Positions 6,521 to 37,149 of a stretch of 64,000 nucleotides of DNA are shown piece by piece (the stretch's first letter is position 1; each line of letters starts with the position of its first letter). The notes beneath the pieces are model-generated. The model had not been told where the DNA came from and made no database searches. It saw only the letters and a list, made by a program, of their open reading frames with translations. The stretch lies in contig NW_027590185.1 of assembly GCF_964213995.1 (NCBI RefSeq), positions 310,001 to 374,000 of the forward strand, written 5' to 3'. The translations under genes were made by a program, and so were the position numbers. Source of the stretch: Mustelus asterias. Lineage: Eukaryota.

Positions 6521-7315
6521 TTGTTTAACCTGGAGAGTCACAAGGACACCCGAACCATAGAGAAACCGTGGAAATGTGGGGACTGTGGGAAGGGATTCAG
6601 GTTCCCATCTGAGCTGGAAATTCATCAACGCAGTCACACTGGGGAGCGGCCGTTCACCTGCTCTGTGTGTGGGAAGGGATCCTATGATTCATCCAACCTG
6701 CAAACACACCAACGAATTCACACGGGGAAGAGACCATTCACCTGTTCTGATTGTGGTACTGGATTTACTCAGTTATGTCATCTGCAGACACACCAGCAAA
6801 TTCACACTGCAGAGAGACCATTTACCTGTCCTGTGTGTGGGAAGGGATTCACTGACTTATCCAGCCTGCGGATACACCAGCGAGTACATTCCGGGGAGAG
6901 GCCGTTCAACTGTCCTGTGTGTGGGGAAGGATTCACTTGGTTATCCAGCATGCGCAGACACAGAGTCACTCACAGCAATGAGAGACCCTATAAATGCTCT
7001 GAATGTGGGAGCGACTTCAAAAGCTCTCAGGTTCTGATGTCCCACCAGCGCATTCACACTGAGGAGAGACCGTTCAGTTGCTCTCACTGCTCAAAGAGAT
7101 TTAGAATGTCATCCTATCTGCGGGTACACCAGCGAGTTCACACTGGGGAGAAACAATTCACTTGCTCTGCCTGTGGAAAGGGATTCACTCAGTTAACCAA
7201 TCTGCAGAGACACCAGCGAGTTCATACTGGGGAGAGGCCATTCACCTGCACCTTGTGTGGGAACGGGTTCACTCAGTCATCCCACCTGCAGACACACCAG
7301 CGAGTTCACAAGTGA
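6521..7315 (+). CDS. C2H2 zinc-finger array (9 fingers); family start ATG changed to ATA, possible pseudogene
   Basis: Open frame with 9 fingers; ACC-ATA-GAG-AAA-CCG-TGG at 6554-6571 where paralogs have ACC-ATG-GAG. Confidence 0.7.
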
Positions 7316-8274
7316 TCACAGGGGTTGCATTCTGCTGTTATTGCTGCTGTTAATCACATCCGGGACTGGGCTCATTGGCAGGCTCTTTAACAGAAAGTGA
7401 GTCCCTCTAAGGTAATTGGCAAAAGAGCCAGAGGGGGAGATGAGACTTTATTTTTGACACAGCGATGTTAGAAAATGGGGTTCAGGGAGTCAATTAGCCC
7501 TTTCTCCCCTTTTCCCAAACTCTGAAATGATTGCCAGTGATAACCCTTATTGGTGACAGTGGTTAGATTTTATTCAGTATCAATAAGAGCTGACACAGGC
7601 TAATGTCTGAGCAGTCGTATCAAAGTGCAGCAGCATTACCATTACACTCTGGGTAGAAGCAGCATCTCCACGGAAATGCTCCCTGCTCTGCCCCAGATGC
7701 CATGGCACCAGTCAATGCAATATGTAAAACCTCGACAAACCTCTGTGCTCGGGAATCCCTTCTCATACTTTTTTACATCACAAAGTCTATGGAGACTGAT
7801 ATAACCCAATCATTGCCCGGCTAACATTTGAACGGACCAATTACAAAACCAAATGGTGCAAAGGGACAAGAGGGACATGAGTCTCTGGAAGGTGTTGAAG
7901 ATAATTTTCTGCAGCAGTGTGTTTCTGCTCCAATGAGAGGGCAGGCACTGCTGGACCTGGTTCTGGGGAATGAGTTGGCCCAAGTGGATCAAATATCAGT
8001 GGGAGAGCATTGAGGGGAGAGTGACCATTGTATCATAAGGTTCAGGTTGGCCATGGAAAAGGACAAGGAACAATCCATAAGAGAGATCATTAATCTAGGG
8101 AAAGCCTCACCTTCGATAGGATGAGAATGGATCTGAGTCGAGTGAGTTGGAATCAAATGTTGGCAGAAAAGCTGATGGCTGAACAATGGGTCACCTTTAA
8201 GGAAAATCTATTGCGGGCGATGTCAGGGTATATTCCCTTAAAGGGGAAGGTTGGAGAACTAAATCCAGGGAACC

Positions 8275-8990
8275 AAATCGTCAAACCTGGAGAGTCACAA
8301 GGCCGTCCATACCCTGACGATATGGTGGAAATGTGGGGATTGTAGGAAAGGACTCCATGCCCCCTGTGAACTGGAAACCCATCGACCCAGGCACAGCAGA
8401 AAGAGGCGCCCATCTGCTCTGTGTGTGGGAAGGGATTCATTGATTCACCCACTCTGCAGCAACACCAGCGAGTTCACACTGGGGAGAGGCCACTCACCTG
8501 CTCTGTGTGGGGGAAGAGATTCAGTAATTCCTCCATTCTGCTGATATACCAGCAAGTTCACACTGGGGAGAGGCCGTTCACTTGTTCTGAGTGCGGAAGG
8601 GAGTCAATGACTCATCAACCCTGCTGATACACCAGCGCATTCACACGGGAGAGAGGCCATTCCCCTACTCTGAGTGTAGGAAGGGATTCACTCAGTTATC
8701 CAATCTGCTGAGACACCAGCGCACTCACACCAATGAGAAAACATTTAAATGCTCTGATTGTGGGAGTTGCTTCAGAAACTCTGCCGACCTGAAGATCCAC
8801 CAGCACATTCACACTGAGGAGAGACCGTTCTGCTGCTCTCACTGCACAAGGAGGTTTCGAACATCATCCAAGCGACTGAGCCATTGGCGAGTTCACACTG
8901 GGGAGAGGCCTTTCACCCACCCTGTGTGTGGATGGGATTCACTTGGTCATCGGAGCTGCTGGGACACTCGGGCAGTCACACTGATTGGAG
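8275..8990 (+). pseudogene. Zinc-finger pseudogene fused downstream of a CR1 fragment (~7860-8270)
   Basis: Finger remnants split over ORFs 8421-8627 and 8591-9034 (frameshift), an upstream in-frame TAG, and C->W/Y substitutions. Confidence 0.8.
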
Positions 8991-10089
8991 CCTTTCTTGA
9001 TGCTCTGACTGTGGGTGTTAATTGTATCGATTAAGGTGAACTACATGGAGGTTATTGATTGGATCTATAAAGGGACAGTTAGTGACGGTGCCTGGAGTTA
9101 GGAGGTATACACCTGTAATGTTTCACTCCGTGAATAAATCTACACCAAATAAAGATTGACTCCACCCTAAGGCTGTCAGGATTATCACATTCTTTGCAGC
9201 ACAGGTTTCTTTCCTCAACTCCAGTAGATGTTCCGACAGTTTCAGCATCCACTTCTTGTTGGGAAGCAGCATCTCAGTAAGTTTCCCTTTGGATCATCGG
9301 TTATCCTCACCCGCTCTGTTGTGGGGTATTTTGAGATGGCCAATTATGTTTTAACTTAATGTCAAACTCATGAGGCAGGTATCTCTGTATAAAGATGTAA
9401 CATTTATTTTAAAAAGACAAACAAACAAGCAGCTGCCCGGAGACCATCAAAGGGTTAAGTAGCTCCAGAGCGGCAAAACCTCTCAGCTGGTTCTGACATG
9501 TACAATCAAAAACAGATCAATTATAGATTTTCTTATCAATAATTCCTGCCTTATATTAGCTTAAAATCAATTACATTCAGTATACACACATCAATATAAA
9601 TCTCTATCAAGTACCCCAGCCAACCACATTCTGCCAGTCAGCATAATGATATCTCATTAGCCATTCAATGCCAGGCGCTCACACCCATCTTGGCTGAACT
9701 CATCCCTATTGCTAAGTAACTATAACCGCTCATCATAGAGGTCAAAGTGAACAGACATGTGTTCCTGTGTCCAGGTACATATCTATTCTATGTCCAGACA
9801 ATGAATATCTCTTTTCATAAAGTTTCAATGTGTGTTCCCTCATAAGAAACTTTCTGATATAAATTCTGCGAACTAAAGGGATCCCAGGCCTTTGGCTCTG
9901 AACTTTTAGCTGATACCATCATACTTTGCAGCATCTTTGCTTTTGGGTGATGTGAGCAATACTTAGAACATTTTCAAAATACATTAAAAAATATCAGCAT
10001 ATGTTTTCAAATTGTAATTGTTTAATCTTACTGCATACACATATGTCTAGTCTATTCCCCTGTTAGCTATCAACTAGTTTCAAGAATCA

Positions 10090-10447
10090 TTCTGAGGGGC
10101 TTGGATAGAGTGGACGTGGAGAGGATGTTTCCAAGAGTGGGAGAGACTAGAACTCGAGGGCACAATCTCAGAGTGAAGGGACGCTCCTTTAAAACTGAGA
10201 TGAGAAGGAATTTCTTCAGTCAGAGAGTGGTGAATCTGTGGAATTCATTGCCACATAGGGCTGTGGAGGTCGGGTCATTGAGTGTCTTTAAGACAGAGAT
10301 AGATAGGTTCTTGATCAATAAGGGGATCAACGGTTACAGGGAGAAGGTAGGAGAATGGGGATGAGAATCATATCAGCCATGATTGAATGGTGGAGCAGAC
10401 TCGATGGGGAAACGGCCTATTTCTGCTCCTATATCTTATGGTCTTAT
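10090..10447 (+). mobile_element. CR1 LINE 3' fragment
   Basis: DRVDVERMFP..TRGHNLR..RRNFFSQRVVNLWNSLP CR1 ORF2 C-terminus plus 3' UTR. Confidence 0.8.
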
Positions 10448-11669
10448 TTAACTCTTTATTACTATTCTGTCTGAAAATCTTATGAGCTGGTTAGGAATCC
10501 CCCTCTACCCGCTCCCTGTGAGGAGGCCGGATGTGGATTATTACCAAAAGTCTGATTGTCGGTGGGGGGTCTGGTGGGTGGAAGCAGAACCTGGAGTTGG
10601 GCAGTGGGTGTTACCGTACTGGTATTGAGGCTCCTGGGTGGTCACACTGTGTTCCCCTTCTCCATGGGATGCCACCTGCGTGGGTTCATGGTGGGCACTG
10701 GAAATTTCCAGCATACAGTTTAGTGTGGTGTTACATCCCCCTCCCTACAGGGTGTGGGCGGACAACATTCCTCCCTTTCTCCCAACACCCCACAAACAAG
10801 ATTCCCGGAGAGAGGGATCCACTGAGTTATAGTCAGTACATTTAATCAATGCAGTAGATTGTGTGGACATAAAAGATTCTCCAGCTCTCCATTCACCTGG
10901 ATCCATCTTGTGGATAAATGTTATGAAATAGTATTTCTCCCGAGCCTTCAATTGTCCCAATCCAAAACTCCTTTAAGCTTCAGTCCATCTTCATTGTCTT
11001 AAAGTCCGTTTGTCTATGGGGTTTGTGTCAGTGCCTTGATCATTTCAAAATGTTTTCTTACTCTTCAGGCCATGTTTACCACTGCATGCCGTGTATTCTG
11101 AAGGAGTCTGCATCAGTGTCCTGTACACCCTGTCCTAATGGGTAAGTACTGTTAGGAGGCTGAGGAACCACTTCCACCTCTTTCCTGTGCTATTTCTCAC
11201 CTGTACCCAGTCTGATCCTTCGTGTTGCTATTTCAAGCTGACATCTCTCACGACTGTACTAATATCATCCTTCATTAACAGAGCTACCCCACCTCCTTTT
11301 CCAAGCTTCCTATCTTTTCAAAGTGTCAAATACTCTGCAATATTTAGTTCCCAGCCTTGGTCACTCTGTAACCATTGTTAGGACACCAGGCCGGAACTCC
11401 AAGTTATATTAGGAAGCCAGACTAGACACCAACATTTATCTTTTTGGGAAAAATGTGAGGAGAGGAGACTTTGCTCCAGGAGTGATGAGAAAATAGGGAT
11501 TTTTTAATATTAAAATAAACTTTATTCACAACAGTTTAAATACAACACGAACAACGCAAACAATTAACAGCTGAACAATACTTAAAATGAAAGGAAACAA
11601 TTTAATTTCTAACTTAGCAACATCCGTTCAGAGGTTCAAATCCCACTTTAAATACAGTTAACAAGCACA

Positions 11670-12560
11670 GATCATAGAGTCATCGAGGTTTACAGCATGG
11701 AAACAGTGTCTTCGGCTCAACCTGTCCATGGCGCCCTTATTTTTTTAACCACCAAGCTAGTCCTAATTTCCCACGTTTGGCCCATATCTCTCTATACCCA
11801 TCTTACGCATGTAACTGCCTACAACGTTTTTTGAAAGACAGCATTGTGCCCGCCTCTACTACTACCTCTGGCAGCTTGTTCCAGACACTCACCACCCTCT
11901 GTGTGAAAAAATTGCCCCTCTGGACCCTTTTTATCTCCCCTCCCACCTTAAACCTATGCCCTCTAGTTTTAGACTCCCCTGCCTTTGGGAAAAGATGTTG
12001 ACTGTCTAGCTGATCCATGCCCCTCATTATTTTATAGACTTCCATAAGATCACCGCTCAGCCTCCTACGCCCCAGAGAAAAAAGTCCCAGTCTATCCAAC
12101 CTCTCCTTATAACTCAAACTACCAAGTCCTGGTAGCATCCTAGTAAATCTTTTCTGCACTCTTTCTAGTTTAATAATATCCTATCTATAATAGGTTGATC
12201 TGAACTGTACACAGCATTCAAAGTGTGGTCTTACCCAATGTCTTCTACAACTTCAGTAAGATGTCCCAACTCCTGGACTTAATGTTCTGACCAATGAAAC
12301 CAAGCATTCCGAATACCTTCTTCACCACCCTGTCCACCTGTGACTCCACTTTCAAGGAGCTATGAACCTGTACCTCTAGATCTCTTTGTTCCATAACTCT
12401 CCCCAATGCCCGACCGTTAACTGAGTAAGCCCTGCCCTGGTTTGATCACCTCACATTTATCTAAATTAAACTCCATCTGCCATTCATCAGCCCACTGGCC
12501 CATTTGATCAAGATCCCATTGCAATCCTAGAAACCTTCTTCACTGTCCATTATGCTACCA
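11670..12560 (-). mobile_element. CR1 LINE fragment
   Basis: ORF 11803-12159 QKRFTRMLPGL..LGLFSL.RRRL..DL..VYK..TRGH. Confidence 0.8.
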
Positions 12561-13004
12561 TAATACTGGCTACAATACATGCCGAAAATCTAGGAGCTTT
12601 CAGAGAGAAAGGGAGTTTCAGAACAGCTTCCAGAAGTTCGCGTCTTCAACCAGAACTCCAGCTCAACTCCAAACCTCGCCTCACTCCTCCCATTAACCCC
12701 ATCATCACAAGACCCAGCATTCCTAAACCCACATTCCAATCCTTTTAGCAAAACCCCAGGGCACCTCCTTTTAACATACACAAGTCCATTGAGATAAACA
12801 ACTGCATGGCTGAAATGAGTAATTATCCTGCTGGTGGTCCCCTGAGAAGCATTCTTCCGCGAAATAGCACTGCTTGTAGAATAAACCAGAAGTTTTAAAC
12901 ATTCTCCCAGAATAGATTAAAAGAAAATATATGTCAGTATATATTGAACACATTCATTGCCCACCCCTGAAAAACAATGAACCAACAATATGAATACTCA
13001 CAGA

Positions 13005-13358
13005 ATACTGCAAGACCTGGACAGAGCAGACATGGGGAAGATGTTTCCATTAGTAAGAAAGACTAGGAACCGAGGGCACAGCCTCAGAATAAAGGGACAA
13101 CCCTTTAGAACCAAGATGAGGAAGAATTTCTTCAGCCAGAGGGTGGTGAATCGATGGAATTCATTGCCATAGATGGCTGTGGAGGCCAGGTCATTGACTG
13201 GATTTAAGACGGAGGTAGATAGTTCTTGATTGGTAAGGGGATCAAAGGTTACAGGGAAAAGGTGGGAGAATGGGGTTCAGATACTTATCAGCCATGATTG
13301 AATGGTGAACAGTCTTGATGGGCCAAATGGCCTAATTCTGCTCATATATCTTATGGTA
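13005..13358 (+). mobile_element. CR1 LINE 3' fragment
   Basis: MFPLV..TRNRGHSLRI..FFSQRVVNRWNSLP plus 3' UTR similar to 10090-10447. Confidence 0.75.
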
Positions 13359-14792
13359 TAAAACTTGGCCGCGTTAGTGAAGAATGATTGAAGACAAATT
13401 GCTCGACACACTGGTCTGTTCCAATCATCAAATGGTCTTTATTTTACAGCGGCGGGGAGGAAGTCGCTGATCTCACCTTGCAACCTCTACCCTGAACATA
13501 GAAAATCACACATTCTTATCCATTTACTGCAGCCCATTCCGGCTGGTTACAAACTAATCACAATATGAATCGATTCCAGACATATCCAATCAAGCTAACA
13601 ATTAGGCATCATGTGGCTGTGTGATCAGCTCATGGACAGCTCTGGACCATCTCATCATGTGGACCAGACACCTTATAACAACTGACCTTGTGACATCACA
13701 ATGACTCACTATACTCAGGACTTTCTGATCTCCACCACATCCCAGCCTATTCCGTTAGCAGTCGGTTACTCAGTGCAGCTGCCTGTGTGCTGATAAGAGG
13801 GGCCCTGCTGAGCAGCTTTAATGGTCCGTGATTGCAGAAACTGAGCAGTCACAGGAATGTGGTCAAGATAGTCCAGTCCCATAATGCCTCACATTCAATC
13901 TGCAGTCCTTCAATTATAACAGAATATGTGGCTGTATGTAGCTGCCTCGGCCGTGGTCAACCCCAACACTGCCTTCCTGAACTGCTACATTGCCTGAGGT
14001 GTAAGTACACCCACAGTGCTGTTAGGGAGGGATTTCCAGCTACACATTCCAGTCTTTCACTAGACTGTCGATGGATACCAGATTGATATATTCCATTCAA
14101 CCACACCCAAGGTGAGTTATTCCAATTCCTTTATTGTCCAGGACAATATATTCACAATATCTTTAAAACAGAAATTAAACATTCCCATTTGATTTCAGGC
14201 AGTAACATATTCTGTTAGTTTGTTCTTTATTGTCAATGTGAGACTGGGATTGTTCCCCTTGGAGCAAAGGAGGTTGAGGGGAGATTTGATAGAGGTGGGC
14301 AAGATTCTGACAGGTTTAGATAAGGTGGACAAAGAAAAGCTGTTCCCATTAGCTGATGGGACAAGGACGAGGAGGACAGAGATTTATGGTTTTGGGTCAG
14401 AGATGCAGGGGGGTGATGTGAGGAAGAATATTTTGATGCAGCGAATGGTAATGACCTGGAACGCGCTGCCTTCGAGAGTGGAGGAAGTGGAGACAATAAA
14501 CAATTACAAAGGAAATTGGATGGGCACTGGGAGGTTTCAAACAGAAATTCTGACTAAATATCTCTGAACTTCCTCACACCCTGTCACTCTGTGATCCTTG
14601 TGAAATTTGAAACCAGGTATTCGCAACAAGACTCAGAGCATCAGCCCACTGGAGGCAAAGTCATGAGACCGACCAGTCCAGCAGAAAGAAACCCTCCGAC
14701 CCTCCCCATTGGCCAACTGTGAGAATGAACAAAATGCAGTCCTGGATGTAACTGAGAGCAGAAACAATAACAGCAGAATCCAACCCCTGGAA

Positions 14793-15467
14793 TCACTCAT
14801 GAACTTGTTGGTGTCTCAGCAGCAAGAATGAAACTCTGAATCCCTTCCCACACTGAGAGCAGGTAAACGGCCTCTCCCCAGTGTGAACCCGCTGGTGTCT
14901 CCACCAGCTGGATGACCGAGCAAATCCCTTCCCACACTGAGAGCAGGTGAACGGCCTCTCCCCAGTGTGAACTCGCTGGTGTGTCTGCAGATCGGATAAC
15001 TGAGTGAATCCCTTCCCACACTGAGAGCAGGTGAATGGTCTCTCCCCAGTGTGAACTCGCTGGTGTCTCCGCAGGTTGGATGACTCAGTAAATCCCACCC
15101 CACACACAGAGCAGATGAATGGCTTCTCCCCAATGTGACCTCGTTGGTGTCTCCGCAAGTTGGATGACTGAATGAATCCCTCCCCACACTGAGAGCAGGT
15201 GAATGGCCTCTCCCCAGTGTGAATGCGCTGGTGTGTCTGCAGAGTAGATAACCGAGTGAATCCCTTCCCACACTGAGAGCAGGTGAACGGCCTCTCCCCA
15301 GTGTGAACTCGCCGGTGTCTCTGCAGGCTGGATGACAGAGTGAATCCCTTCCCACACTGAGAGCAGATGAATGGCCTCTCCCCAGTGTGGCTGCGCCGAT
15401 GAGCATCCAGCAGAGATGGAGATCTGTATCTCTTCCCACAGTCCGCACATTTCCATGGTTTCTCCAT
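14793..15467 (-). CDS. C2H2 zinc-finger protein, 8 fingers
   Basis: ACCATGG start (MEKPWKC) at 15467 and an open array to TGA; upstream exons inferred at 17591-~17700 and 15988-16053, coding exon begins at 15818. Confidence 0.85.
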
Positions 15468-16944
15468 GGTGCAGGTGTCCTTGCCTCTGTCTTGTTTGGA
15501 CAATCAGTTAATGCCTCGTCCACCCACAAAACACGGGTACAGTCTCTCCCCACTGTGAATAGTGTGATATTTATTCAGGCGGTGTAACTTGTTAAAGCTC
15601 TTTAGTCAGTGCACTGGAACACTCTCACTCGAGTGTGGCAGTGTGTTGCTGCTTTTCCAGTCACACTGACATTTGAAATCTATTCAAATCGACAGACCGG
15701 ATAATCATTTCTCCTTCTAGATTCAAAGGCCAATGATATTCAGATCCCAAGGAATATGACTCTGTCGGATCTAGACATGACGGTTGAGATTTCGGCCTGT
15801 GATTCCTCTTTCAATATCCTGCAAAATGAGTTTGCAAAAGTCATCAGTGTCAGTACAGGATAGAAATTCAGAACAGACAATTCTAGTTTCTGTGGAACAT
15901 TCTTTCCTCTCTCATTCCCCAAAAAGCTGTGAATCTCCATCCCACACACTCTCCCTCCATTCTCACTCTGCTGTATCTAATATTCACCCTCCCAATTCTC
16001 CTGAAGGTGCTGATTGAGGCTGATTGACAGATCCAGGCTCACTGCTTCCTGTCCTGGACACAGAGACCATAACAAATAGGTGCTGCAGTCGGCTATTTGA
16101 CCCATCGAGCCTTTTAAACTATTCAATGAGATAATTCATTCATCTCCCTCAGCATCATTCTCCCCACACTAAACCCATATCCCTTGACATCTTCAATATT
16201 GAGAAACCAATCAATCTCTCCCCTGAAAATAGTTGATGACTGAGGCTTCACTGTCCTCAACGGTTGAGAATTCCAAAGCTTCACCACATACTTGAGTGAA
16301 GAAATCCCCCCACATCTTATCTTTTGCTCCATCTTCTTGTCTGTTCCCCATAACCATTAATGCCCCTGTCAGTCAAAAATCTGTCTAACTCATCCTGGAA
16401 TATATTCAATGACCTTCAGCCTCCACTGGTCCCTGTGGAAGACAAATCCAAAAGACTTACAACCCTCTGAGGGAAGAGATGTCTGGAAATATATAATGTA
16501 GCTACAGTTCCATATTACAAGTCTATGGATTCTATTTAAAAATGAAAGTGGATGGGCACTTGAAGGAAATAAACTTTCAGGAGAATGGGGATATAGAGTG
16601 GGAATGGGACTGGAACGTTATCCAGAGAGTCAGCATGGACTCGAGTTACCAAATGGACTCCTTCTGTGCTGTAATGACTATGGCTGGAAATGTATAAGAT
16701 AGCTACAGCATTATATTACAACACAAGAAATAATAATAAATGCACTTTTTTACAGAACCATAAATAACATATCTAATCGGTACCATATAACAACACTCGA
16801 CATATCTCTGTCTTATATTAATGTACTGTCCCCTTAAATGTCAGCCATCTCCTGGGGAAAGATGCCCTTTAATTGTGAACATTTAGCCAGACAAATAAAT
16901 GTCCTTTTAGCCAGACAAATAAATGTCTCAAGCTGAGGGAGCAA

Positions 16945-17930: not shown

Positions 17931-17994
17931 ATTGCACAGTAAGAAGTTTAACAACACCAGGTTAAAGTCCAACAGGTTTATTTGGTAGCAAAAG

Positions 17995-18039: not shown

Positions 18040-18833
18040 GAATTCTGTTCACAAACAGAGTTTATAAAGACATAGACTCAATTTACAGAATAATGGTTGG
18101 AATGCGAATACTTACAACTAATCAAGTCTTTCAGAAACAAAACAATGGGAGTGGAGAGAGCATCAAGACAGGCTAAAAAGATGTGTATTGTCTCCAGACA
18201 AGACAGCCAGTGAAACTCTGCAGGTCCACGCAACTGTGGGAGTTACAAATAGTGTGACATGAAGCCAATATCCCGGTTGAGGCCGTCCTCGTGGGTGCGG
18301 AACTTGGCTATCAGTTTCTGCTCAGCGACTCTGCGCTGTCGTGTGTCGCGAAGGCCGCCTTGGAGAACGCTTACCCGAATATCAGAGGCCGAATGCCCGT
18401 GACCGCTGAAGTGCTCCCCAACAGGAAGAGAACACTCTTGCCTGGTGATTGTCGAGCGGTGTTCATTCATCCGTTGTCGCAGTGTCTGCATAGTTTCCCC
18501 AATGTACCATGCCTCGGGACATCCTTTCTTGCAGCGTATCAGGTAGACAACGTTGGCCGAGTTGCAAGAGTATGTACCGTGTACCTGGTGGATGGTGTTC
18601 TCACGTGAGATGATGGCATCTGTGTCGATGATCCGACACGTCTTGCAGAGGTTGCTGTGGCAGGGTTGTGTGGTGTCTTGGTCACTGTTCTCCTGAAGGC
18701 TGGGTAGTTTGCTGCGGACAATGGTCTGTTTGAGGTTGTGCGGTTGTTTGAAGGCAAGAAGTGGGGGTGTTGGGATGGCCTTGGCGAGATGTTCGTCTTC
18801 ATCAATGACATGTTGAAGGCTCCGGAGGAGCAA

Positions 18834-20360
18834 TCGGGCAATGGGACCCTGTGCGAGAACCTCTCCGGCTATGTCGAGGGCATCCTGAAACCCATTGTAC
18901 AAAGAACCCCCAGCTTTTGTCGCGACACGACGGACTTCCTACAGAAACTCGGCACACATGGAGCAGTTGAACCAGGAGCGCTCCTCGTCACAATGGATGT
19001 CTCGGCACTCTACACCAGCATCCCCCATGACGATGGCATTGCTGCAACGGCCTCAGTGCTCAGCGCCAACAACTGCCAGTTTCCAGATGCAACTTTACAT
19101 CTCATCCGCTTCATCCTGGACCACAATATCTTCACCTTCAACAACCAGTTCTTCATCCAGACACACGGAACAGCCATGGGGACCAAATTTGCACCTCAAT
19201 ATGCCAACATCTTCATGCACAGGTTCGAACAAGACTTCTTCACCGCACGGGACCTTCAACCGATGCTATACACTAGATACATCGATGACATTTTCTTCCT
19301 TTGGACTCATGGTGAACAATCACTGAAACAACTCTATGATGACATCAACAAGTTCCATCCCACCATCAGGCTCACCATAGACTACTCTCCAGAATCGGTT
19401 GCATTCTTGGACACGCGCATCTCCATTAAGGACGGTCACCTCAGCACCTCACTGTACCGCAAGCCCACGGATAACCTCACGATGCTCCGCTTCTCCAGCT
19501 TCCACACTAAACACGTTAAAGAAGCCATCCCCTACGGACAAGCCCTCCGTATACACAGGATCTGCTCGGATGAGGAGGATCGCAACAGACACCTCCAGAC
19601 GCTGAAAGGTGCCCTCATAAGAACAGGATATGGCGCTAGACTCATTGATCAACAGTTCCAACGCGCCACAGCGAAAAACCGCACCGACCTCCTCAGAAGA
19701 CAAACACGGGACACAGTGGACAGAGTACCCTTCGTTGTCCAGTACTTCCCCGGAGCGGAGAAGCTACGGCATCTCCTCCGGAGCCTTCAACATGTCATTG
19801 ATGAAGACAAACATCTCGCCAAGGCCATCCCCACACCCCCACTTCTTGCCTTCAAACAACCGCACAACCTCAAACAGACCATTGTCCGCAGCAAACTACC
19901 CAGCCTTCAGGAAAACAGGGACCACGACACCACACAACCCTGCCACAGCAACCTCTGCAAGACGTGTCGGATCATCGACACAGATGCCATCATCTCACGT
20001 GAGAACACCATCCACCAGGTACGCGGTACATACTCTTGCAACTCGGCCAACGTTGTCTACCTGATACGCTGCAAGAAAGGATGTCCCGAGGCATGGTACA
20101 TTGGGGAAACTATGCAGACGCTGCGACAACGGATGAATGAACACCGCTCGACAATCACCAGGCAAGATTGTTCTCTTCCTGTTGGGGAGCACTTCAGCGG
20201 TCACGGGCATTCGGCCTCTGATATTTGGGTAAGCGCTCTCCAAGGCGGCCTTCGCGACACACGACAGCGCAGAGTCGCTGAGCAGAAACTGATAGCCAAG
20301 TTCCGCACACACGCGGACGGCCTCAACCGGGATATTGGGTTCATGTCACACTATTTGTAA
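18834..20360 (+). CDS. PLE reverse transcriptase plus Cys-linker plus GIY-YIG endonuclease (5'-truncated, uninterrupted)
   Basis: DVSALYTSIP, QTHGTAMG, RYIDDIF, FLD RT motifs; PCHSNLCKTC linker; NVVYLIRC..WYIGET..RMNEH..E..LN endonuclease. Confidence 0.9.
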   Translation, partial: SGNGTLCENLSGYVEGILKPIVQRTPSFCRDTTDFLQKLGTHGAVEPGALLVTMDVSALYTSIPHDDGIAATASVLSANNCQFPDATLHLIRFILDHNIFTFNNQFFIQTHGTAMGTKFAPQYANIFMHRFEQDFFTARDLQPMLYTRYIDDIFFLWTHGEQSLKQLYDDINKFHPTIRLTIDYSPESVAFLDTRISIKDGHLSTSLYRKPTDNLTMLRFSSFHTKHVKEAIPYGQALRIHRICSDEEDRNRHLQTLKGALIRTGYGARLIDQQFQRATAKNRTDLLRRQTRDTVDRVPFVVQYFPGAEKLRHLLRSLQHVIDEDKHLAKAIPTPPLLAFKQPHNLKQTIVRSKLPSLQENRDHDTTQPCHSNLCKTCRIIDTDAIISRENTIHQVRGTYSCNSANVVYLIRCKKGCPEAWYIGETMQTLRQRMNEHRSTITRQDCSLPVGEHFSGHGHSASDIWVSALQGGLRDTRQRRVAEQKLIAKFRTHADGLNRDIGFMSHYL

Positions 20361-23862: not shown

Positions 23863-25280
23863 AAACACTTTGTTTTCTTCTCTCCTTTTTCTTCTCATTC
23901 TGGGGTTAAATTGGGGACTTGCAGCAACTGAAGGGAAAGGAAGTGAATTCAGGGAGCTGCAGACTCTGGAAAGGTTGGCCCAGGTATCTCTCTCCCTCTT
24001 AAAGACATTGCCATCCTTTGCTTCCTCAACTTGTCACATTTATTTGTCTGGTTAAGAGGATGGTCTCTTTCCTAATGTTCACAATTTAAAGGGATGATTT
24101 CCCGAGGAAATAGCTGAAATTTAAAGGGCAGTAAATTAATATAGGACAGAGATGTGTGCAGTCTTGTAATATGGTACAAATTAGATATATTATGCATGGT
24201 CCAGTAATAAAGTTCATTTTTTATTATTTTTAGTTTTGTTAATACTGTAACTAAGTAGTTTATTTTCAGTAATCGGGTTATCGTATCACACAAGGAGTCC
24301 ATTCAGCAACTCAAGTCCATGCTAACTCTCTGTCGAGCAATCCAGTCAGTCCCATTCCCCCTTAAGTTCGTAAGATAGAGGAGCATAATTAGGCTATTTG
24401 GCCCATTGAGTCCACTCCGCCATTCAATCATGGCTGATATGCTCCTCATCCCGTCTGTATCCCTGTTCCCCTGCCAGTCTATTTTGACTGCCATCTAATT
24501 TCATTTTGAAATATTGAATGTATCAAAATGCACCACCCTCATAGCCAAACAATTGATATTCAAGAACGTTCACTGTCGAAATAATGTTCTATCTCATAGC
24601 CTTGCTGTACTTCTAATTATTAAACTGGTCCCCTATGTTACATACATTTTACTTCGCTAAGTATATTTAGGTATTTAGACTAGCAGCCTGCATGAAGATA
24701 TCTCAGTGCTGGAGAAGAAGCAGTGAGCATGGATTTGTTGATCAGCATGAATCAACACCTTCAGGAGAATTGGAAGGGTGTATTATACATACAGCAGAGT
24801 GAGGAGACAGGGATAGGGTGTGGGATGGAGATGTACAGATCCAGAGGAACGAGAAAGGAAGAAATGTTCCACAGAAACTAGAATTGTCTATTCTGAATTT
24901 CTGTTTGATACTGACAGTGATGACTTTTGTAAACTCATTTTACAGGAAGTTATAAGGGGAAGATTTGCTGCCAGCAATCTCAAAACATGTTAAGGCTTAA
25001 TAGAGTCACTCAAATTATCAGAACTTGAATATCATCAGACTTTGAATCTAGAAGAAGAAATATTTATCTGTTTTTTCTGTCACATCAGTGTGACTGGAAA
25101 GGCACCAAGGAACACAGACCTGAGTGAGAGTGTCCAGTACACTGACTGTCAAAAGACCAGTTACACAGACTGCAAAAATATCACATCATTTACAGCGGGG
25201 ACAGACAGTACACATGCTCTATGTGTGGATGAGGATTTAACTGATTGTTAAACCTGGAAAGACACAAGGACATCCACACC

Positions 25281-26579
25281 ATGGAGAAACCGGGAAAAGA
25301 TGAGGTTTGTGGTAAGGAATTCCATATCCCGTCTGCACTGCAAACTCATCAACATATTCACACTGGGGAGAGACTGTTCCCCTGCTCCAAGTGTGGGGAA
25401 GGAGACTGCTCCCCATCTGCCCTGAAGATTCATCAATGCAGCCACACTGGGGAGAGGCCCTTCATCTGCTCTGAGTGTGGGAAGGGTTTTCTCCAGGCAG
25501 CCGACCTGTGGAATCACCAAGCAGTTCACAGTAGGGAGAGGCCGTACACCTGCTCTGAGTGTGGGAAGGGATTCACTCAGTTATCCCACCTGCTGACAAA
25601 CCAGCAAGTTCACACTGGGGAAAAACCGTTCAACTGCTCTGAGTGTGGGAAGCAATTCAATCATTCATCTGAACTTTTGAATCACCAACAAATCCACACC
25701 GAAGAGCGACAATTCACCTGCTCCGACTGTGGAAAGGGTTTCACTCAGTCATCTCACCTGCAGATACACCAGCGAGCCCACACTAAGGAGAGGCCTTTCA
25801 ACTGCTCTGAGTGTGGGAAGTGTTTTATTCAATTATCACACCTAGTGAATCACCAGGAAGTCCATAGGGGGGAGAGGCCGTTCCCCTGCTCCGAGTGTGG
25901 GAAGCGTTTTATTCAGTTATCACACCTAGTGACTCACCAGGGAGTCCACAGGAGGGAGAGGCCATTCCCCTGCTCCGAATGTGGGAAGCGTTTTATTCAG
26001 TTATCACACCTAGTGACACACAAAGGAACACACACAAGGGAGAGGCCATTCAGCTGCCCCGAATGTGGGAAACGTTTTATCCAATCGTCACACCTAATGT
26101 CACACCAGGGAGTTCACAGCAGGGAGAGGCCATTCGTCTGCTCCGAGTGTGGGAGGCGTTTTATTCAATCATCCCACCTAGTGTCGCATCAGGAGGTTCA
26201 CACCAGGGAGAGGCCATTTACCTGTTCCGAGTGTGGCAGGGGATTCATTCAGTTATCCGACCTGCAGAATCACCAGCAAGTTCACACCGGGGAGAGGCCA
26301 TTCACCTGCTCTGAGTGTGGGAAGGGATTCACTCGTTCAGCTAACCTGCAGGCACACCGACGTGTTCACACCAGGGAGAGACCATTCACCTGCTCTGAGT
26401 GTGGGAAAGGATTCGCTCTTTCGTCTTATCTGCAGAGTCACCAGCAAGTTCACACTGGAGAGAGGCCGTTTATCTGCTCTGAGTGTGGAAAGGGATTCAT
26501 TCAGTCATCCCACCTGCAGACACACCAACGAGTTCACAAGGATTCACAAAGGGATTCACTCAGTCATCCCACCTGCTGA
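25281..26579 (+). CDS. C2H2 zinc-finger protein, ~13 intact plus 2 degenerate fingers
   Basis: ACCATGG start at 25281 and an open array; coding exon acceptor ends at 24945. Confidence 0.85.
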   Translation: MEKPGKDEVCGKEFHIPSALQTHQHIHTGERLFPCSKCGEGDCSPSALKIHQCSHTGERPFICSECGKGFLQAADLWNHQAVHSRERPYTCSECGKGFTQLSHLLTNQQVHTGEKPFNCSECGKQFNHSSELLNHQQIHTEERQFTCSDCGKGFTQSSHLQIHQRAHTKERPFNCSECGKCFIQLSHLVNHQEVHRGERPFPCSECGKRFIQLSHLVTHQGVHRRERPFPCSECGKRFIQLSHLVTHKGTHTRERPFSCPECGKRFIQSSHLMSHQGVHSRERPFVCSECGRRFIQSSHLVSHQEVHTRERPFTCSECGRGFIQLSDLQNHQQVHTGERPFTCSECGKGFTRSANLQAHRRVHTRERPFTCSECGKGFALSSYLQSHQQVHTGERPFICSECGKGFIQSSHLQTHQRVHKDSQRDSLSHPTC

Positions 26580-26904
26580 GACACCAGTAAGTTCACAAGT
26601 GATGACAGGGGTTGGATTCTGCTGTTATTGCTGCTGTTAATCACATCCAGGACTGAACCATGTTCATTCTGACAGTTGGTGAAGTGGGAGGGTCGGAGAG
26701 TTTCTTTCTGCTGGACTGGCCGGTCTCACAACTTTGTTTCCAGTGGACTGATGCTCTTTGAGTTTGGGAGAGCACATTTCCACTGAAATGATTCGCAAAA
26801 ACAAAGCTGATGAATGTGCCAACTCGACACAGCCACCCAAGGCCGGAATCGAACCCGGTCCCTGGGGCTGTGAGCCAACTGGTCTAACCACTGCACCACC
26901 ATAT

Positions 26905-30879: not shown

Positions 30880-32140
30880 AATTAGGAGCAGGAGAAGGCC
30901 ACTCGGCCCCTCGAGCCTGCTCCACTATTCAATAGGATCCTGGCTGATGTGATTATAGCTTCAACTCCAGTTTCCTTCTTACCCCTCACACCCTTTGACT
31001 CTCGTTAATCAAGAATCTATTAAATTCAGACTTCAGAATATTCAGTGAGCCAGCCTCCACCACTCTCTGTGGAAGAGAATTCCACACTGTAACAACCCTC
31101 TGAGAGAAAAGGTTTCTCCTCATTTCAGTCTTAAATGGGAGACCCCTTATTTTTAAACTGCCTCTAGTTCTCCTCTCTCTACAATCAACATCCACTTTGT
31201 CAAGTCCCCTCTGAATTTTATATGTTTCAATCAGATCCTCTCTCATTCCTCTAAACCCCAATAGATACAGGCCGAACATGTCCAACTTTTCATCATATGA
31301 CAACCCCCTCATCCCAGGAATCAGTCAAGTAAACCTTCTCCGAACTACTTCTCACACAAGTCCTCTCTGAAGTAAGGAGACCAAAACTGTACACAGTACT
31401 CTTGATGTGGTCTCACCAATACCCTGAACAAATGCAGCAAAACATCCCTGCAATAAACAACAATTCATTTACCTTTCTAATCATTTGCTGTGTCCACACA
31501 CTAACGTTTCCTGATTACAGTACCAGGACACCCAGATCCCTCTGTACCTGCAATCGCTCTCTTTAAATAATCAACTGCTTTTCCATCCTTCCTGTCCAAA
31601 TGGACAAGTTCACATTATCCAAAAATCTTGTTCCAGCTACCAACTTTTTACCCACTCACTCACTATGTCGCTTTGCAGGCTTGTTATGGTCATTCACATC
31701 TCACTTTCCGACCTACCCTTTGTGTTATCAGCAAATTTTGATCCTGTCATCCACGTCATGAAAATAGTTTGTCAATAGTTGAGGCCCCAGCACTGATCCC
31801 TGTGGCACTCCACAAGCTACATCTTGCCATCCCAAAAGTTACTCCTTTCTCCCTCCTCTCTGTTTCCCATTAGCTAATCAATCCTCTATCCATGCTAATA
31901 CAAAGAACCGATGTGGATGGGATGCTAATATGTTATGCCTTATGCTACGAATTCTTATTTTGTGTGGTAAACTTTGATGTGTCAAATGCCTGCTGGAAAT
32001 CTAAATACACCACATCCACAGGTTCCACTTTATCCACATTGCTTGTAACTTCCTCAAAGAAATCCAATAAATCAATTAAAGGTGATTTCCCTTGCACAAA
32101 ACCATGTTGACTCTGCCTGATTGTACAGAGATTATCTCTG
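30880..32140 (-). mobile_element. Degenerate CR1 LINE
   Basis: QHGFVQGKS.L..LLDFFEEVT..VD..VDVVYLDFQQAFD and C-terminal motifs. Confidence 0.75.
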
Positions 32141-32183
32141 TGTTCCACCCTCCCAGCCTCCTTAATAACAGAATGAACATGAT

Positions 32184-33494
32184 TCAGTCCTGCATGGGGT
32201 TAGCAGCAACAGCAGAATCCAATCCCTGCAGTGACTTGTGAACTTGCTGGTGTCTCAGCAGATTGGCTGACCGAGCAAATCTCTTCCCACATACGGAGCA
32301 GGTGAACGATCTCTCTCCTGTGTGAACCTGCTGGTGTCTCAGCAGGTGGGATGACTGAGTGAACCTTTTCCCACACATGGAGCAGGTGAATGATCTCTCC
32401 CCAGTGTGAATTTGCTGGTGTCTCAGCAGGTCCTTCGTGCTTTTAAAACTTTTCTCATAGTCAGAACACTTAAAAGGTCTCTGATCAGTGTGGACCAGTT
32501 GATGTGCAATGAGCTGGGGTGGCTGAGTGAATCGTTTCCCACATGTGGAGCAAGCGAAGGGTTTCTCCCCAGTGTGAATTCGCTCGTGTATCAGAAGGTG
32601 GGGCGAATCAGTGAATCCCTTCCCACACACACAGCAAATAAATGTCTTCTCCCCGGTGTGAACTCGCTGGTGTCTCAGACAGTGGGATGAATGGGTGAAT
32701 CCCATCCCACACACCGAGCAGGTGAACGGTTTCTCCCCAGTGTGAACTCGCTGGTGTGTCACCAAATCCTGTTTACTTTTAAAGCTCTTCTCACAGTCAG
32801 AACACTGAAATGGTCTCTTATCAGAGTGAACTCGCTGGTGTGTTTGCAGCTGGGATAAACGTCCGAATCTCCTCTCACACACGGAGCAGGTGAATGGCTT
32901 CTCCCCAGTGTGAGTGCGCTGATGGACTTGTAAATCATTTTTACTTTTAAACCTCTTCTCACAGTCAGAACATTGAAATGGTCTCCGATCAGTGTGAACA
33001 AGTTGGTGTGTCAGAAGGTGGGATGACTGAGTGAATCCCTTCCCACACACTGAGCAGGTGAACGGTCTCACCGCCATGTGAGTGCGCTGGTGTCTCAGGA
33101 GGTCCTTTGTGCTTTTAAAGCTTTTCTCACAATCAGAACATTGAAACGGTCTCTGATCGGAGTGAACTTGCCGGTGAATCAGGAGGCTTGATAAAGCATG
33201 ACATCCCCTCCCACATTCGAGGCAGGTGAACGGCCTCTCACCAGTGTGAACACGCCGGTGTGTATAGAGGCTGGATGAGTAAGCAAATCCTTTCCCACAC
33301 TCAGAGCAGGTGAACGGCCTCTCTCCAGTGTGAATGCGACGATGAATATCCAATTCGGACGGGTAATTGAATCCCCTCCCACAGTCCCCACATTTCAATG
33401 GTTTCTCTGTGCTGCCGGTGTCCTCGTGTGACTCCAGGTTGGATGATGAGTTGAAGCCTCGTTTACACAGAATATGAGTCGGGTCACTACTCAC
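32184..33494 (-). CDS. C2H2 zinc-finger array, 13 intact fingers plus 1 broken (C->Y); family ATG absent
   Basis: Open frame from GTG; the MEKP position reads TEKP (ACA); the frame reads through the usual stop position into SLQGLDSAVAANPMQD. Confidence 0.75.
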   Translation of the reverse strand: MSSDPTHILCKRGFNSSSNLESHEDTGSTEKPLKCGDCGRGFNYPSELDIHRRIHTGERPFTCSECGKGFAYSSSLYTHRRVHTGERPFTCLECGRGCHALSSLLIHRQVHSDQRPFQCSDCEKSFKSTKDLLRHQRTHMAVRPFTCSVCGKGFTQSSHLLTHQLVHTDRRPFQCSDCEKRFKSKNDLQVHQRTHTGEKPFTCSVCERRFGRLSQLQTHQRVHSDKRPFQCSDCEKSFKSKQDLVTHQRVHTGEKPFTCSVCGMGFTHSSHCLRHQRVHTGEKTFICCVCGKGFTDSPHLLIHERIHTGEKPFACSTCGKRFTQPPQLIAHQLVHTDQRPFKCSDYEKSFKSTKDLLRHQQIHTGERSFTCSMCGKRFTQSSHLLRHQQVHTGERSFTCSVCGKRFARSANLLRHQQVHKSLQGLDSAVAANPMQD

Positions 33495-33989
33495 TGAGAA
33501 TGATGTGATTATTTTTCAGACTTGTTCAACCACTTTCCACATTCAGCACATTGGAAACCCTCAGGTGTGTGTGTGTCTCGGTGCTTTTTCAGTCACACTG
33601 ATGTTTGAAATCTTTGCCCGCAGACAGAATAAACATTTCTCCTTCTGGAGACAAAGGCTGATGATATTCAGTTTCTGATTAATCAAATCACTGAAACAGA
33701 TCTTGATGTGAAGTTTGGTTTGAGTTTCATATCTGTAAATCTTGCTTCATAATACTCTGCAAAAACAGTTTACAAATACAGGGTACCATCACTGTCAGTC
33801 CAGGATAGAAATTCTGAAATTTCTCTGCAACATATTTTCCTCTCTTGTTCCCCGTCCCACACACTCTCCCACCTCCCCTGGGCTGAAATCCAAACCCATC
33901 TCAACATCTCCACCATTTCTTTCCTCCACTCCATTTTCTCCCTCCCTCTCCTCTGTCTGGGTTCAGTTATTGATGTGGAAATCTCACTA

Positions 33990-34235
33990 ACTGTCCTGGC
34001 TGGAGACAATACACATCTCTTTAACCTGTGCTCAACTCTCCCTCCACTCACATTGTCTGTACCTTTAAGAATTGATTACCTGTAAAGACTCGCATTCCGA
34101 CCATTATCTTGTAAATTGAGTTTGTGAACAAAACTCCCACTTACCTGACAAAGGAGCAGCGCTTCGAAAGCTGGTGGCTTTTGCTACCAAATAAACCTGT
34201 TGGACTTTAACCTGGTGTTGTTAAACTTCTTACTG
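33990..34235 (+). mobile_element. PLE pseudo-LTR fragment with degenerate hammerhead
   Basis: Homologous to 20395-20666; core reads CTGACAA and the site reads CUG, so probably inactive. Confidence 0.75.
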
Positions 34236-34579
34236 GGTTTAGTTCTCCAGCTCCTGTCTGCAGACTGACAATAAAACCAATGGGTCTGGGGCCTCCAGCG
34301 GGTGTTTGTGAATCCTCCCCGCCCACCTCCCAGGGTTTCCTTCCTTCCCAGAGATCAGAGTCCTCATTGATTTGAGGCCAAAGTGTAACCTCTTATTTAT
34401 TGTCCCCCTCCCCCATCCTCTGATGTGAACCATCCTCCAGTGGCTGAGCCAGGATGGGGCCGTTAACCTGGGCCTGTTCCCGGGAGGGAGGGAGGGAGAA
34501 GCCCCGCAGCTGCAAACCAGGGAGCTGACAATGATTCTGAAGGGTTTGCGGATCCACAAAGTGTTTCCAAATCCTCCCA

Positions 34580-34930
34580 GCCACCGCCTAACGCTGACTC
34601 CGCTTCTCCGGGACAAACAAGCGCCAAGGACAGCAATGACACTGCGCATGCTCCACATCACAATGCCCAGGGGCTGATTGACAGCAGCTCCGGACCAATA
34701 GGAAGAGGGGGCGGGGCTGGAGGACCGAGTGGGAGCGGCTGGTCCTCCAACCAATCGGAATGAATGAGGGGCGGGACCTGAAGCATGCGCAGTGCGGGTG
34801 AACCAGATAAACCTGTTGGACTTTAACCTGGTGTTGTTTGACTTGTTGCTGTGTTTACCCCAGTCCAACGCCGGCATCTCCACATCAGTGCGGGTAATGG
34901 CGACGGCCGGTTTTAGTTTGGAAGCGAGAT
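34580..34930. promoter_or_regulatory. CpG-island, probably bidirectional, promoter between divergent ZNF genes
   Basis: TGCGCATG and GCATGCGCA (NRF1-like), two CCAAT, two GGGCGG boxes, TGGAGGACC-n14-GGTCCTCCA, AATGGCG. Confidence 0.7.
34800..34885 (+). mobile_element. 86-bp PLE 3' end insertion with 10-bp TSD
   Basis: CAGTGCGGGT at 34790-34799 and 34886-34895 flank ATAAACCTGTTGGACTTTAACCTGG...CCAGTCCAACGCCGGCATCTCCACAT. Confidence 0.8.
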
Positions 34931-35464
34931 CAATGAAGGGAAAGGAATGACTGGCAATTGGGAGGTTTTAAAAGTGTGATATCAAGAGTCCAGGGGCAGT
35001 ATATTCCTGTTAAGATGCAGGGAAAGAATGGTAAATTTAGGGATCTCTGGCAGACAAGGGACATTGAGGCTCTGGTCAGGTAAAAGAAGGAAGCATACAT
35101 TGGGTTTAGGCAATCGGGGACAAATGAATCACTCTGACTATAAAAAGTGTAAGAAAATACTGAAGAGGGAAATCAGGAGGACAAAAAGAGGGTATGATAT
35201 GGATCTGGCAGGTAAGATTAAAGAAAATTCCAAGATGTTCTATAGCTATATTAAGAGGAAAAGGGTGGCTAGAGAGAGAATAGATCCCCTGAAAAATCAG
35301 TATGGCCATCTGCGTGTGGAGCCACAGGAGATGGGTGAGATTTTTAATGAATACTTCTCTGTGTTTACTGCGGAGAGCACCATGGGTGCGAAAGAAATAA
35401 GGGAAACAAGTGGTGATGTGTTGGGCACACGCATGTTACTTGGGAGGAGGTATCTGCAGCCTTA

Positions 35465-35651
35465 TAAAAGCAAATTACTGCGGATGCTGGAATCTGAAAC
35501 CAAGAGAGAAAATGCTGGAAAATCTCAGCAGGTCTGGCAGCATCTGTAAGGAGAGAAAAGAGCTGATGTTTTTTGTCTAGATGACCCTTTGTCAAAGCTC
35601 TGAAACATCAGTTCTTTTCTCTCCATACAGATGCTGCCAGACCTGCTGAGA
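35465..35651. mobile_element. Hairpin (inverted-repeat) non-autonomous element with decayed hammerhead, second family
   Basis: TCTCAGCAGGTCTGGCAGCATCTGTA...TACAGATGCTGCCAGACCTGCTGAGA arms; same family as 59840-60025. Confidence 0.7.
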
Positions 35652-36137
35652 ATGGGGAGAGAGTGTGTGGGATGGAGATTTACAGCTTTTGGGGAATGAG
35701 AGAGGAAAGAATGTTCCATAGAAATTGTCTGTTCTGAATTTCTATCCTGTACTGACACTGATGACTTTTGTAAACTCATTTTACAGGATATTGAAAGAGG
35801 AATCACAGGCTGAAATCTCAAACGTCACGTCTCGATCTGACAGAGTCTTATTCCTTGGGACCTCAATATCATCGGACTTTGAACCTAGAAGGAGAAATGA
35901 TTGTCCAGTCTGTCGATTTGAAAAGATTTGAAATGTCAGTGTGAGTGAAAAAGCATCAACACACTACCACACTCGAGTGAGAGTGTTCCAATGCACTGAC
36001 TAAAGAGCTTTAACCAGTTACACAGTCTGAATCAATATCACACCATTCACAGCGGGTAGAAACTGTAATCTTGTTCTGTGTGTGGACGAAGTTTCAACTA
36101 ATTGTCCACCCAAGAGAGAGGTAAGGACACCTGCACC

Positions 36138-36896
36138 ATGGAGAAACCATGGAAATGTGTGGACTGTGGGAAGGGATGCAGAACCCCATCTCAGCTGGAA
36201 GCTCATCGGCGCAACCACACTGGGGAGAGGCCGTTCATCTGCTCTCAGTGTGGGGAGGGATTCACTCGGTCAACCAACCTGCAGTCACACCAGCGAGTTC
36301 ACACTGGGGAGAGACCATTCACCTGCTCTCAGTGTGGGCAGGGATTCATTCAGTTCTGCAGCCTGCAGACACACCAGCGAGTTCACACTGGAGAGAGGCC
36401 ATTCACCTGCTCTCAGTGTGGGAAGGGATTCACTCGGTCATCCCACCTGCAGAGACACCAGCGAGTTCACACTGGGGAGAGTCCATTCACCTGCTCTCAG
36501 TGTGGGAAGGGATTCACTCAGCCATCCCACCTGCAGAGACACCAACGCATTCACACTGGGGAGAGGCCGTTCACCTGCTCTCAGTGTGGGAAGGGATTCA
36601 CTCAGTCATCCAACCTGCGGACACACGAACGAGTTCACACTGGGGAGAGACCGTTCACCTGCTCTCAGTGTGGGCAAGAATTCACTCAGTTATGCACCCT
36701 GCAGACACACCAGCTAGTTCACACTGGGGAGAGGCCATTCACCTGTTCTCAGTGTGGGAAGGGATTCACTCGGTCATCCACCCTGCGGACGCACCAGCGA
36801 GTTCACACTGGGGAGAGTCCGTTCACCTGCTCTCAGTGTGGGAAGGGTTTCAGCGTTTCATCCCAGCTGCTGAGACATCAACAGGTTCACGAGTGA
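36138..36896 (+). CDS. C2H2 zinc-finger protein, 9 fingers; close paralog of the 14.8 kb gene
   Basis: ACCATGG start at 36138; coding exon acceptor ends at 35786; UTRs align with 14570-15970 reverse complement. Confidence 0.85.
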
Positions 36897-37149
36897 TGAC
36901 AGTGGTTGGATTCTGCTGTTATTGTTTCTGCTCTCAATTACATCCAGGATTGCATTTTGTTCATTCTCACAGTTGGTCAATGGGAAGGGTCAGAGGGTTT
37001 CTTTGTGCTGGACTGGCTGGTCTCAGCCTCCAGTGGGCTGATGCTCTTTGAGTCTTTTTGTGAATACCTGATTTCAAATGTCACAAGGATCACAGAGTGA
37101 CAGGGTGTTAGGAAGTTTAGAGATATTTAGTCAGAAGAAAACAGAGGTT

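Follow-up and report, generated by a model that had tools for sequence, protein, structure and literature searches.

What does the short sequence that recurs directly behind the last finger of a group of shark zinc-finger genes represent: a C-terminal peptide exposed by the loss or leakage of a stop codon, or non-coding DNA that the genes hold in common? The question arises in a stretch of 64,000 nucleotides (nt) from Mustelus asterias (contig NW_027590185.1 of assembly GCF_964213995.1, positions 310,001 to 374,000 of the forward strand), termed the window throughout, which contains a cluster of tandem C2H2 zinc-finger (ZNF) open reading frames (ORFs) amid reverse-transcriptase elements, two immunoglobulin (Ig) V-set segments and one rhodopsin-family receptor. 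An earlier note on this DNA read the sequence behind the stop, the tail, as a peptide. Substitutions in the tail ignore codon position, and the tail is most likely conserved DNA rather than a conserved peptide. The reading preferred here, in which a 3′ untranslated region (UTR) start shared by the paralogs is held as an RNA-level control site and stop codons are lost sporadically, is considered to have about an even chance of being correct.

A shared block behind the last finger

The tail peptide was located at all six sites given in the earlier note. It reads SQGLHSAVIAAVNHIRD at 7316 (+), FQGLDSAVIVSALSYIQD at 14792 (−) and PAKLDSVVSAP at 2542 (+); at 26603-26656 (+) a second TGA is followed by QGLDSAVIAAVNHIQD and then TGA, at 36897 (+) a second TGA precedes QWLDSAVIVSALNYIQD, and the ORF at 32184-33515 (−) terminates in an open tail, SLQGLDSAVAANPMQD. 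An 18-nt pattern allowing up to three mismatches matches the window six times, exactly at these places, while in 100 shuffles it matched 0.15 times on average and never more than twice; the pattern was derived from the six copies themselves, so the excess of matches demonstrates relatedness only.

The conserved element is not peptide-sized, and homology runs past the end of the peptide. The majority-like copy behind the 26.6 kb gene (26600-26679, +) consists of TGA TGA, 16 codons, a TGA and 12-23 more shared nt, with its most invariant core at 26612-26629; it is followed by 3′ UTR common to a subfamily (26680-26763, +) with a second TTCTGCTG at 26706. Downstream DNA homology among the 14.8, 26.6 and 36.9 kb genes extends 160-250 nt past the stop, and in the other three genes it ends 36, 56 and approximately 72 nt after it. 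At 14548-14792 (−) the tail copy (14739-14792) and more shared 3′ UTR are present; this copy has a 3-nt insertion, has lost its end stop and is open for 43 codons. The block of the 36.9 kb gene (36897-37136, +) likewise continues from the tail copy proper (36900-36950) into more shared 3′ UTR. The 7.3 kb copy (7316-7368, +) is identical to that at 26.6 kb in 51 of 54 nt from the stop onward until homology is lost 56 nt past the stop; the truncated, diverged 2.5 kb copy (2542-2577, +) comes to a stop directly after its 11 residues, with homology lost about 36 nt past the stop of the gene. The open tail of the 32.2 kb gene is two codons shorter and has a His to Pro replacement.

It had been claimed that the tail stands in frame with the fingers and that all length differences are multiples of three. 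Frame is kept in the other copies, and the length rule holds inside the tail; neither applies to the 26.6 kb gene as a whole, in which 59 nt from the end of the last finger are duplicated (26541-26599, +); the duplicate, containing an in-frame TAA, separates the last real finger from the tail and throws the latter out of frame. Because of this duplication the ORF (25245-26579, +) has a frameshifted end, terminating in another frame ahead of the tail, and the tail stands behind the in-frame TAA and TGA TGA; out of frame behind duplication and double stop, the majority-like copy cannot be translated by readthrough of its gene.

It is proposed that the block, 70-80 nt long, opens the 3′ UTR in a large elasmobranch family of tandem C2H2 ZNF genes, and it is probably exonic. 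The genes are paralogous as whole cassettes: upstream, an alignment of some 500-600 nt has 67-89% identity and is broken by many gaps that shift the frame (of 20 distinct gaps, 4 have a length divisible by three), and the unit of duplication is a cassette of a leader of about 600 nt, the finger array and the UTR start. The TGA behind the last finger, at times doubled or replaced by TAA in the sequences, would be the real stop and is presumed to terminate efficiently.

For the family at large, 4 of 20 public runs, from four coded organisms, were compared with window positions 26556-26805, to which 1100, 438, 844 and 841 contigs matched per run; with hundreds of contigs in each run, the block therefore marks a large family. 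Variants were drawn from 40 of 109 rows, which can be neither phased nor placed on a tree, and there are 459 more loose ends beyond those listed. Large groups of contigs diverge from the reference not at the end stop (26654-26656) but 12-23 nt past it, at 26668 and 26679; the sequence after these points repeats the TTCTGCTG and TGTTAAT words of the tail. Core-over-downstream depth ratios of 1.6-12 are not copy numbers and were not used as evidence. In other subfamilies a second, degenerate copy of the tail words follows 26668/26679, with AATAAA in one form and absent from another.

At the protein level, a search with a tail profile returned one protein among 8000 candidates scored, Heterodontus (horn shark) XP_067910341.1, with the C-terminus HKILQGLDSAVIAAVNHVQD. 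It shares 66% identity over 374 residues with the 32.2 kb gene, the last array matching finger by finger; the model is 1420 amino acids (aa) long, looks chimeric and holds an internal, strongly diverged tail copy four codons shorter. The skate model XP_078269708.1 carries the block twice in the −1 frame (QVTAGAGFCCC, compared with QVTAGIGFCCCC in the 32.2 kb gene); the skate stop state is unreadable from the protein, the deciding base being the wobble position in the −1 frame. Since the block is found in horn shark and skate proteins, it is common to sharks and skates.

Among 1.84 billion representatives no finger protein with the tail was found; three matches were returned, comprising one 33-aa ORF from the UTR behind the peptide and two unrelated repetitive proteins that were dropped. 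The 43-aa tail searched against longer proteins gave one candidate and no match. Among the 120 matches listed for the 32.2 kb protein, generic fingers dominate, five are from cartilaginous fishes by name, and none has an open tail in the finger frame; three window proteins were absent from the protein collection, and the seven clusters found were all singletons. DNA pattern scans gave 0, 0 and 3 viral and 11 metagenome matches, all 14 loci being chance matches outside any finger context, and none in prokaryote genomes. Open tails are real but tentatively appear to be uncommon, with shark ZNF sampling thin and a 17-residue match near the limit of detection.

Codon position, frame and structure

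Substitutions were counted by hand, tree-free and in small numbers, against the majority-like form of the 26.6 kb gene. The four other full copies in the window show 12 events, 4 of which are synonymous, and the best-supported variants in the contig rows contribute seven changes inside the tail (six replacements and one synonymous); pooled, with one duplicate removed, 4 of 18 are synonymous, where chance would give a share of 0.23-0.35. This result fits neutrality (p=0.61); its probability is 0.002 under a ratio of nonsynonymous to synonymous rates (dN/dS) of 0.3, and 0.03 under 0.5. Across ten pairs of the 7-codon core, the proportion of differing sites is 0.17 for nonsynonymous (pN) and 0.15 for synonymous (pS) positions, compared with a pN of 0.23 and a pS of 0.43 in the last fingers of the same genes. 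Silent sites in the core are as fixed as replacement sites, which protein-level selection would not explain. A pattern near a dN/dS of 1, which the earlier note had named as evidence against its own proposal, is therefore what the substitutions resemble, on small counts (4/18; core pN 0.17 against pS 0.15), and the idea of an optional peptide that binds a cofactor and is switched by readthrough or by loss of the stop is probably wrong; the fallback offered in its place, a conserved 3′ UTR element, fits the data.

All three frames alike yield tidy conserved peptides (including a poly-Leu run and a Cys run), and 59% of dinucleotide shuffles are stop-free across 16 codons; the "peptide" would be what a GCT/GTT/ATT tract, poor in stops and prone to slip by 3 nt at a time, yields on translation, and the caveat entered beforehand about triplet-like slippage and double stops agrees with the data. 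Frameshifting indels, set as the other sign against a peptide, did not prove to be common: they are present but rare in the family contigs, with a −1 at 26608 (six contigs, four runs, one probably compensated), and a −1 at 26640 (two contigs), against one −3. Of seven contig indel rows at 26599-26640, a +C/−1 pair was dropped as compensating, the row at 26599 lies just before the stop, and a +T row probably compensates a −1 within the same X13 contig, which leaves the −1 at 26608 and the −1 at 26640 as likely frameshifts; the Fisher test of contig indels (3/7, p=0.33) still counted four frameshifts and thus understates the preservation of frame.

The amphipathic helix that had been suggested did not survive comparison with residue shuffles, 10-76% of which reach the same hydrophobic moment in the five copies tested; the moment is lowest, 0.19, in the open 32.2 kb copy. 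Pfam contains no family for any of three tail peptides and Rfam gives no match in the window; the best PDB match has an E of 1.7, and Atlas matches are finger clusters only, all below 0.9. RNA folding of all six copies (80-83 nt) gives z values of −1.34 to +0.44 relative to shuffles, and the folds differ. The majority form contains three YGCY words, two UGUU(A/U) words and one TGCTGCT heptamer, the latter missing from the 14.8 and 36.9 kb copies; these are presumably sites of the MBNL, DAZL and miR-15/16 types, and being short they serve as leads only. As far as the available text of PMC10163088 describes Sin3-interaction domains (Mad1, HBP1, REST and SAP25 patterns), the tail is similarly short and Ala/Val/Ile-rich; unlike these domains, it matches the Mad1, HBP1 and REST Sin3-binding patterns in none of six copies and the loose SAP25 type I pattern in only two of six.

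The constraint on the block at the nucleotide level is probably mild. Mean identity is 0.93 in the 18-nt core (nine pairs) whereas the leader upstream, divided into twelve bins of 40 columns, has 0.67-0.87, bin sizes being different; over the whole tail it is 0.82, the same as past the peptide's end (0.82). The 51 of 54 identical positions of the 7.3 and 26.6 kb tails compare with 343 of 432 upstream, and 0 of 379 upstream windows reach the level of the tails. Upstream identity does not rise toward the array (0.75, 0.74 and 0.70 in the bins closest to it), and right at the stop 12 nt show 0.74 identity compared with the 0.93 of the core behind it; the flat upstream identity and the dip at the stop argue mildly against conversion alone. 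It is hypothesized that the block is kept at the nucleotide level because it serves the paralogs as a common control site in the RNA: a tract rich in CUG and UGUU, just past the stop, through which many paralogous mRNAs could be co-regulated.

The stop codons themselves are mostly intact. Five of the six window copies are stopped and one, in the 32.2 kb gene, is open; among the 40 of 109 rows there is no variant at the first TGA (26600-26602) or the end TGA (26654-26656). Some loose ends carry TAA as the stop, in part with another TGA in frame, and one form is open, with TGT (four contigs, X13). Stop loss is documented in the 32.2 kb gene, in Heterodontus XP_067910341.1 and in this TGT form, and the former stop position is occupied by Ser, Ile and Cys, respectively. 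An occasional point loss of the stop, as in the 32.2 kb gene and the one horn shark model, would append some 17 residues, which are tolerated, before the next TGA is reached; the added residues show no sign of selection on them. UGA-C is a leaky stop context. Through the variant 26603 T>C, a C directly follows the TGA in 12 to 43 contigs of each run (in X17 and X19 at 28% and 39% of the depth), and it does so in one of five stopped window copies (the 2.5 kb gene); double stops occur in two of the five. A single readthrough event would append 0, 0, 11, 24 or 43 residues across the five stopped copies.

Weighing the explanations

Several observations weigh against a control site held in a shared UTR start. 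The tail exceeds its own upstream identity at p<0.05 in only 3 of 10 pairs, which depend on one another, and the region was selected post hoc; the search for a binding factor, a structure or an Rfam family gave nothing, so that a control site is something we infer. X17 and X19 contigs run unbroken through finger, stop and tail, in favor of a block within the transcript, but the RNA status of both runs is a guess, and the finger pS of 0.43 may be inflated by repeat shuffling. The two indels fixed in the tail, +3 and −6, are both multiples of three (2/2 against 4/20 upstream, p=0.065), each within the triplet-like tract, and the horn shark protein with matching finger order retains the open tail nearly perfectly. 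The closest competitor holds that the block is functionless in itself and was inherited with the cassette, homogenised by recent expansion and by gene conversion beside the array in slowly evolving genomes; it is somewhat doubtful but still a considerable possibility. The leader is likewise paralogous (500-600 nt at 67-89% identity), seven of ten pairs show no significant excess in the tail, the 14.8/36.9 kb pair has 0.90 identity upstream and 0.91 in the tail, and homology breaks off 36, 56 and about 72 nt past the stop in three of six genes. Substitution rates in cartilaginous fishes are slow according to the accessible part of PMC8455134, which favors plain inheritance. Conversion tracts spreading from the array would not be expected to lack a 5′ identity gradient toward it or to leave 0.74 at the stop beside 0.93 in the core, and plain inheritance has to account for a block still recognisable in a skate protein.

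A functional peptide, as effector or through readthrough, is unlikely; it keeps what probability it has because of the indels in multiples of three, the rarity of frameshifts, the UGA-C context, the two related open-tail genes and the half-silent substitutions of the open copy. It is improbable that the tail is a real, possibly ancestral, protein-binding C-terminus in a single old subfamily, comprising the 32.2 kb gene and the related horn shark gene, and a silent relic elsewhere. These two genes share finger order, 66% identity over 374 residues and an open tail to the same stop, the end TGA is invariant in the 40 of 109 variant rows, two of four substitutions in the open copy are synonymous, and a Pfam effector is otherwise missing from the exons of the two ORFs scanned; against this, the open copy lacks two codons and has Pro in place of His within the proposed helix, the Ser, Ile and Cys at the former stop look like independent or drifting losses, and the single protein match is to the chimeric-looking 1420-aa model. 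The Mad1, HBP1 and REST patterns are missing from all six copies, the open 32.2 kb gene is without the family ATG, and relic status would leave the conservation of the stopped copies unexplained. That a short C-terminal effector is permanent in one old subfamily and switchable in hundreds of paralogs through loss or leakiness of a single UGA, with the family toggling between DNA binder and repressor, is very improbable.

Programmed stop-codon readthrough, of which a study of a Drosophila POU/Oct factor reportedly provides an example, would yield an extended isoform from the stopped genes, and its probability here is slight. The resemblance lies in a UGA stop, a frame open to a second stop and a transcription-factor gene; the stop is mostly TGA with C next in many family members and in the 2.5 kb gene, and the majority form is capped at 17 codons by a second in-frame TGA, with frameshifts rare. 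Unlike programmed readthrough, the tail has no coding-type conservation or substitution bias, double stops in two of five stopped copies (one of these out of frame), an extension of variable length (0, 0, 11, 24 or 43 residues) and no stable or shared RNA structure (z −1.34 to +0.44); TAA forms with a further in-frame TGA occur among the loose ends, and hydrophobic UTR-derived tails are usually degraded via BAG6, according to the available portions of PMC10364623 and 10.1101/2022.07.20.500724. Least probable of all is some other feature at the same bases: a hairpin in the RNA, the remains of a further finger, splicing at the stop, or a C-terminus rich in Cys read in the −1 frame. In the −1 frame four of seven listed variants are synonymous and the skate gene model ends, but the synonymous share expected for transitions is 0.38 and the stop is lost in two of six copies; a decayed finger is suggested by the 14.8 kb tail (z=2.0 against the finger profile) and opposed by the other three tails (z −1.3 to 0.7). 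No joint and no listed loose end points to a splice site at 26598 or 26609, with 459 more loose ends outside the listing, and a hairpin is opposed by folding that is not significant.

The gene cluster and comparable systems

A divergent member of the family is a ZNF ORF of 650 aa from stop to stop (589-2541, +). The 7.3 kb gene (6521-7315, +) has nine fingers and ATA in place of the family start ATG, its first Met being residue 144; the 14.8 kb gene (14793-15503, −) has eight fingers, a TGA stop and a Met directly ahead of the first finger, and is a close paralog of the nine-finger 36.9 kb gene (36102-36896, +), with 89-90% identity up- and downstream. The stop-loss gene (32184-33515, −; TCA at 32232-32234) includes the tail within its ORF and is without a Met before residue 147. 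The leader of about 600 nt common to the 7.3, 14.8, 26, 32.2 and 36.9 kb genes resembles decayed, frameshifted fingers and ends at a Met directly before the first intact finger in three of the five; the 7.3 and 32.2 kb genes are without that ATG. The 32.2 kb (−) and 36.9 kb (+) genes form a head-to-head pair (window 33392-36156) with first fingers 2.76 kb apart, and two broken, frameshifted ZNF copies, at 8332-9034 (+) and 43221-43367 (−), are without the tail block. Long alternative frames of up to 308 aa lie open across the arrays at 36125-37051 (+), 26182-26640 (+) and 15085-15507 (−); they are probably a by-product of repeat codon usage. A Pfam scan of two ZNF ORFs, with upstream exons outside its range, found no KRAB, SCAN or other effector or accessory family among the matches.

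Adjoining the cluster are two Ig V-set segments (Pfam V-set) at 48815-49213 (+) and 53114-53557 (+), each followed by a heptamer-spacer-nonamer-like signal (about 49135 and 53534), which we take to resemble T-cell receptor V genes. A single-exon rhodopsin-family receptor ORF of 341 aa (7tm_1) lies at 57318-58343 (−). A reverse-transcriptase ORF (+) within 18243-20360, its 3′ part duplicated in inverted form on the − strand, belongs to an element that is presumably Penelope/GIY-YIG-like; an open reverse-transcriptase ORF of 750 aa at 59933-62185 (+), with numerous shorter similar fragments across the window, is assumed to be CR1-like.

Lineage-specific C2H2 expansions such as tetrapod KRAB-ZNFs and fish FiNZ-ZNFs (Wells et al. 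2023, PMC10547256, in the text available) are, like the cluster described here, clustered and fast-duplicating amid retroelements; the main text of that paper contains no occurrence of shark, chondrichth or cartilaginous. Unlike those families, the two shark ORFs scanned, exons upstream lying outside the scan, contain no accessory Pfam family. Literature searches of titles and abstracts, of incomplete coverage, gave no description of this block or peptide, and searches lacking most subscription papers gave none of a shark or ray ZNF expansion. Extensions derived from 3′ UTRs or stop loss (PMC10364623; 10.1101/2022.07.20.500724, each as far as accessible) likewise have a hydrophobic-looking tail from base-biased non-coding sequence; unlike known stop-loss extensions, one UTR start is common to the whole shark family, and the same extension therefore recurs across genes and species. 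Znf598-dependent no-go decay of C2H2-ZNF mRNAs acts via translation of the finger repeats, according to the available text of PMC11620358, and shares with the shark family a common sequence that permits co-regulation of many ZNF mRNAs. Unlike the target of that decay, the shark block sits behind the stop. One study is also said to link ZNF sequences and poly(A).

As a family-wide 3′ UTR signature, the block is usable for counting and classifying shark and ray ZNF genes; it also provides a warning, as gene models can extend into it whatever the frame. A functional peptide would fill in for a missing effector and amount to a novel type of switch, against which the evidence stands; if instead the block is a real control site, it would provide a single handle on hundreds of ZNF mRNAs.

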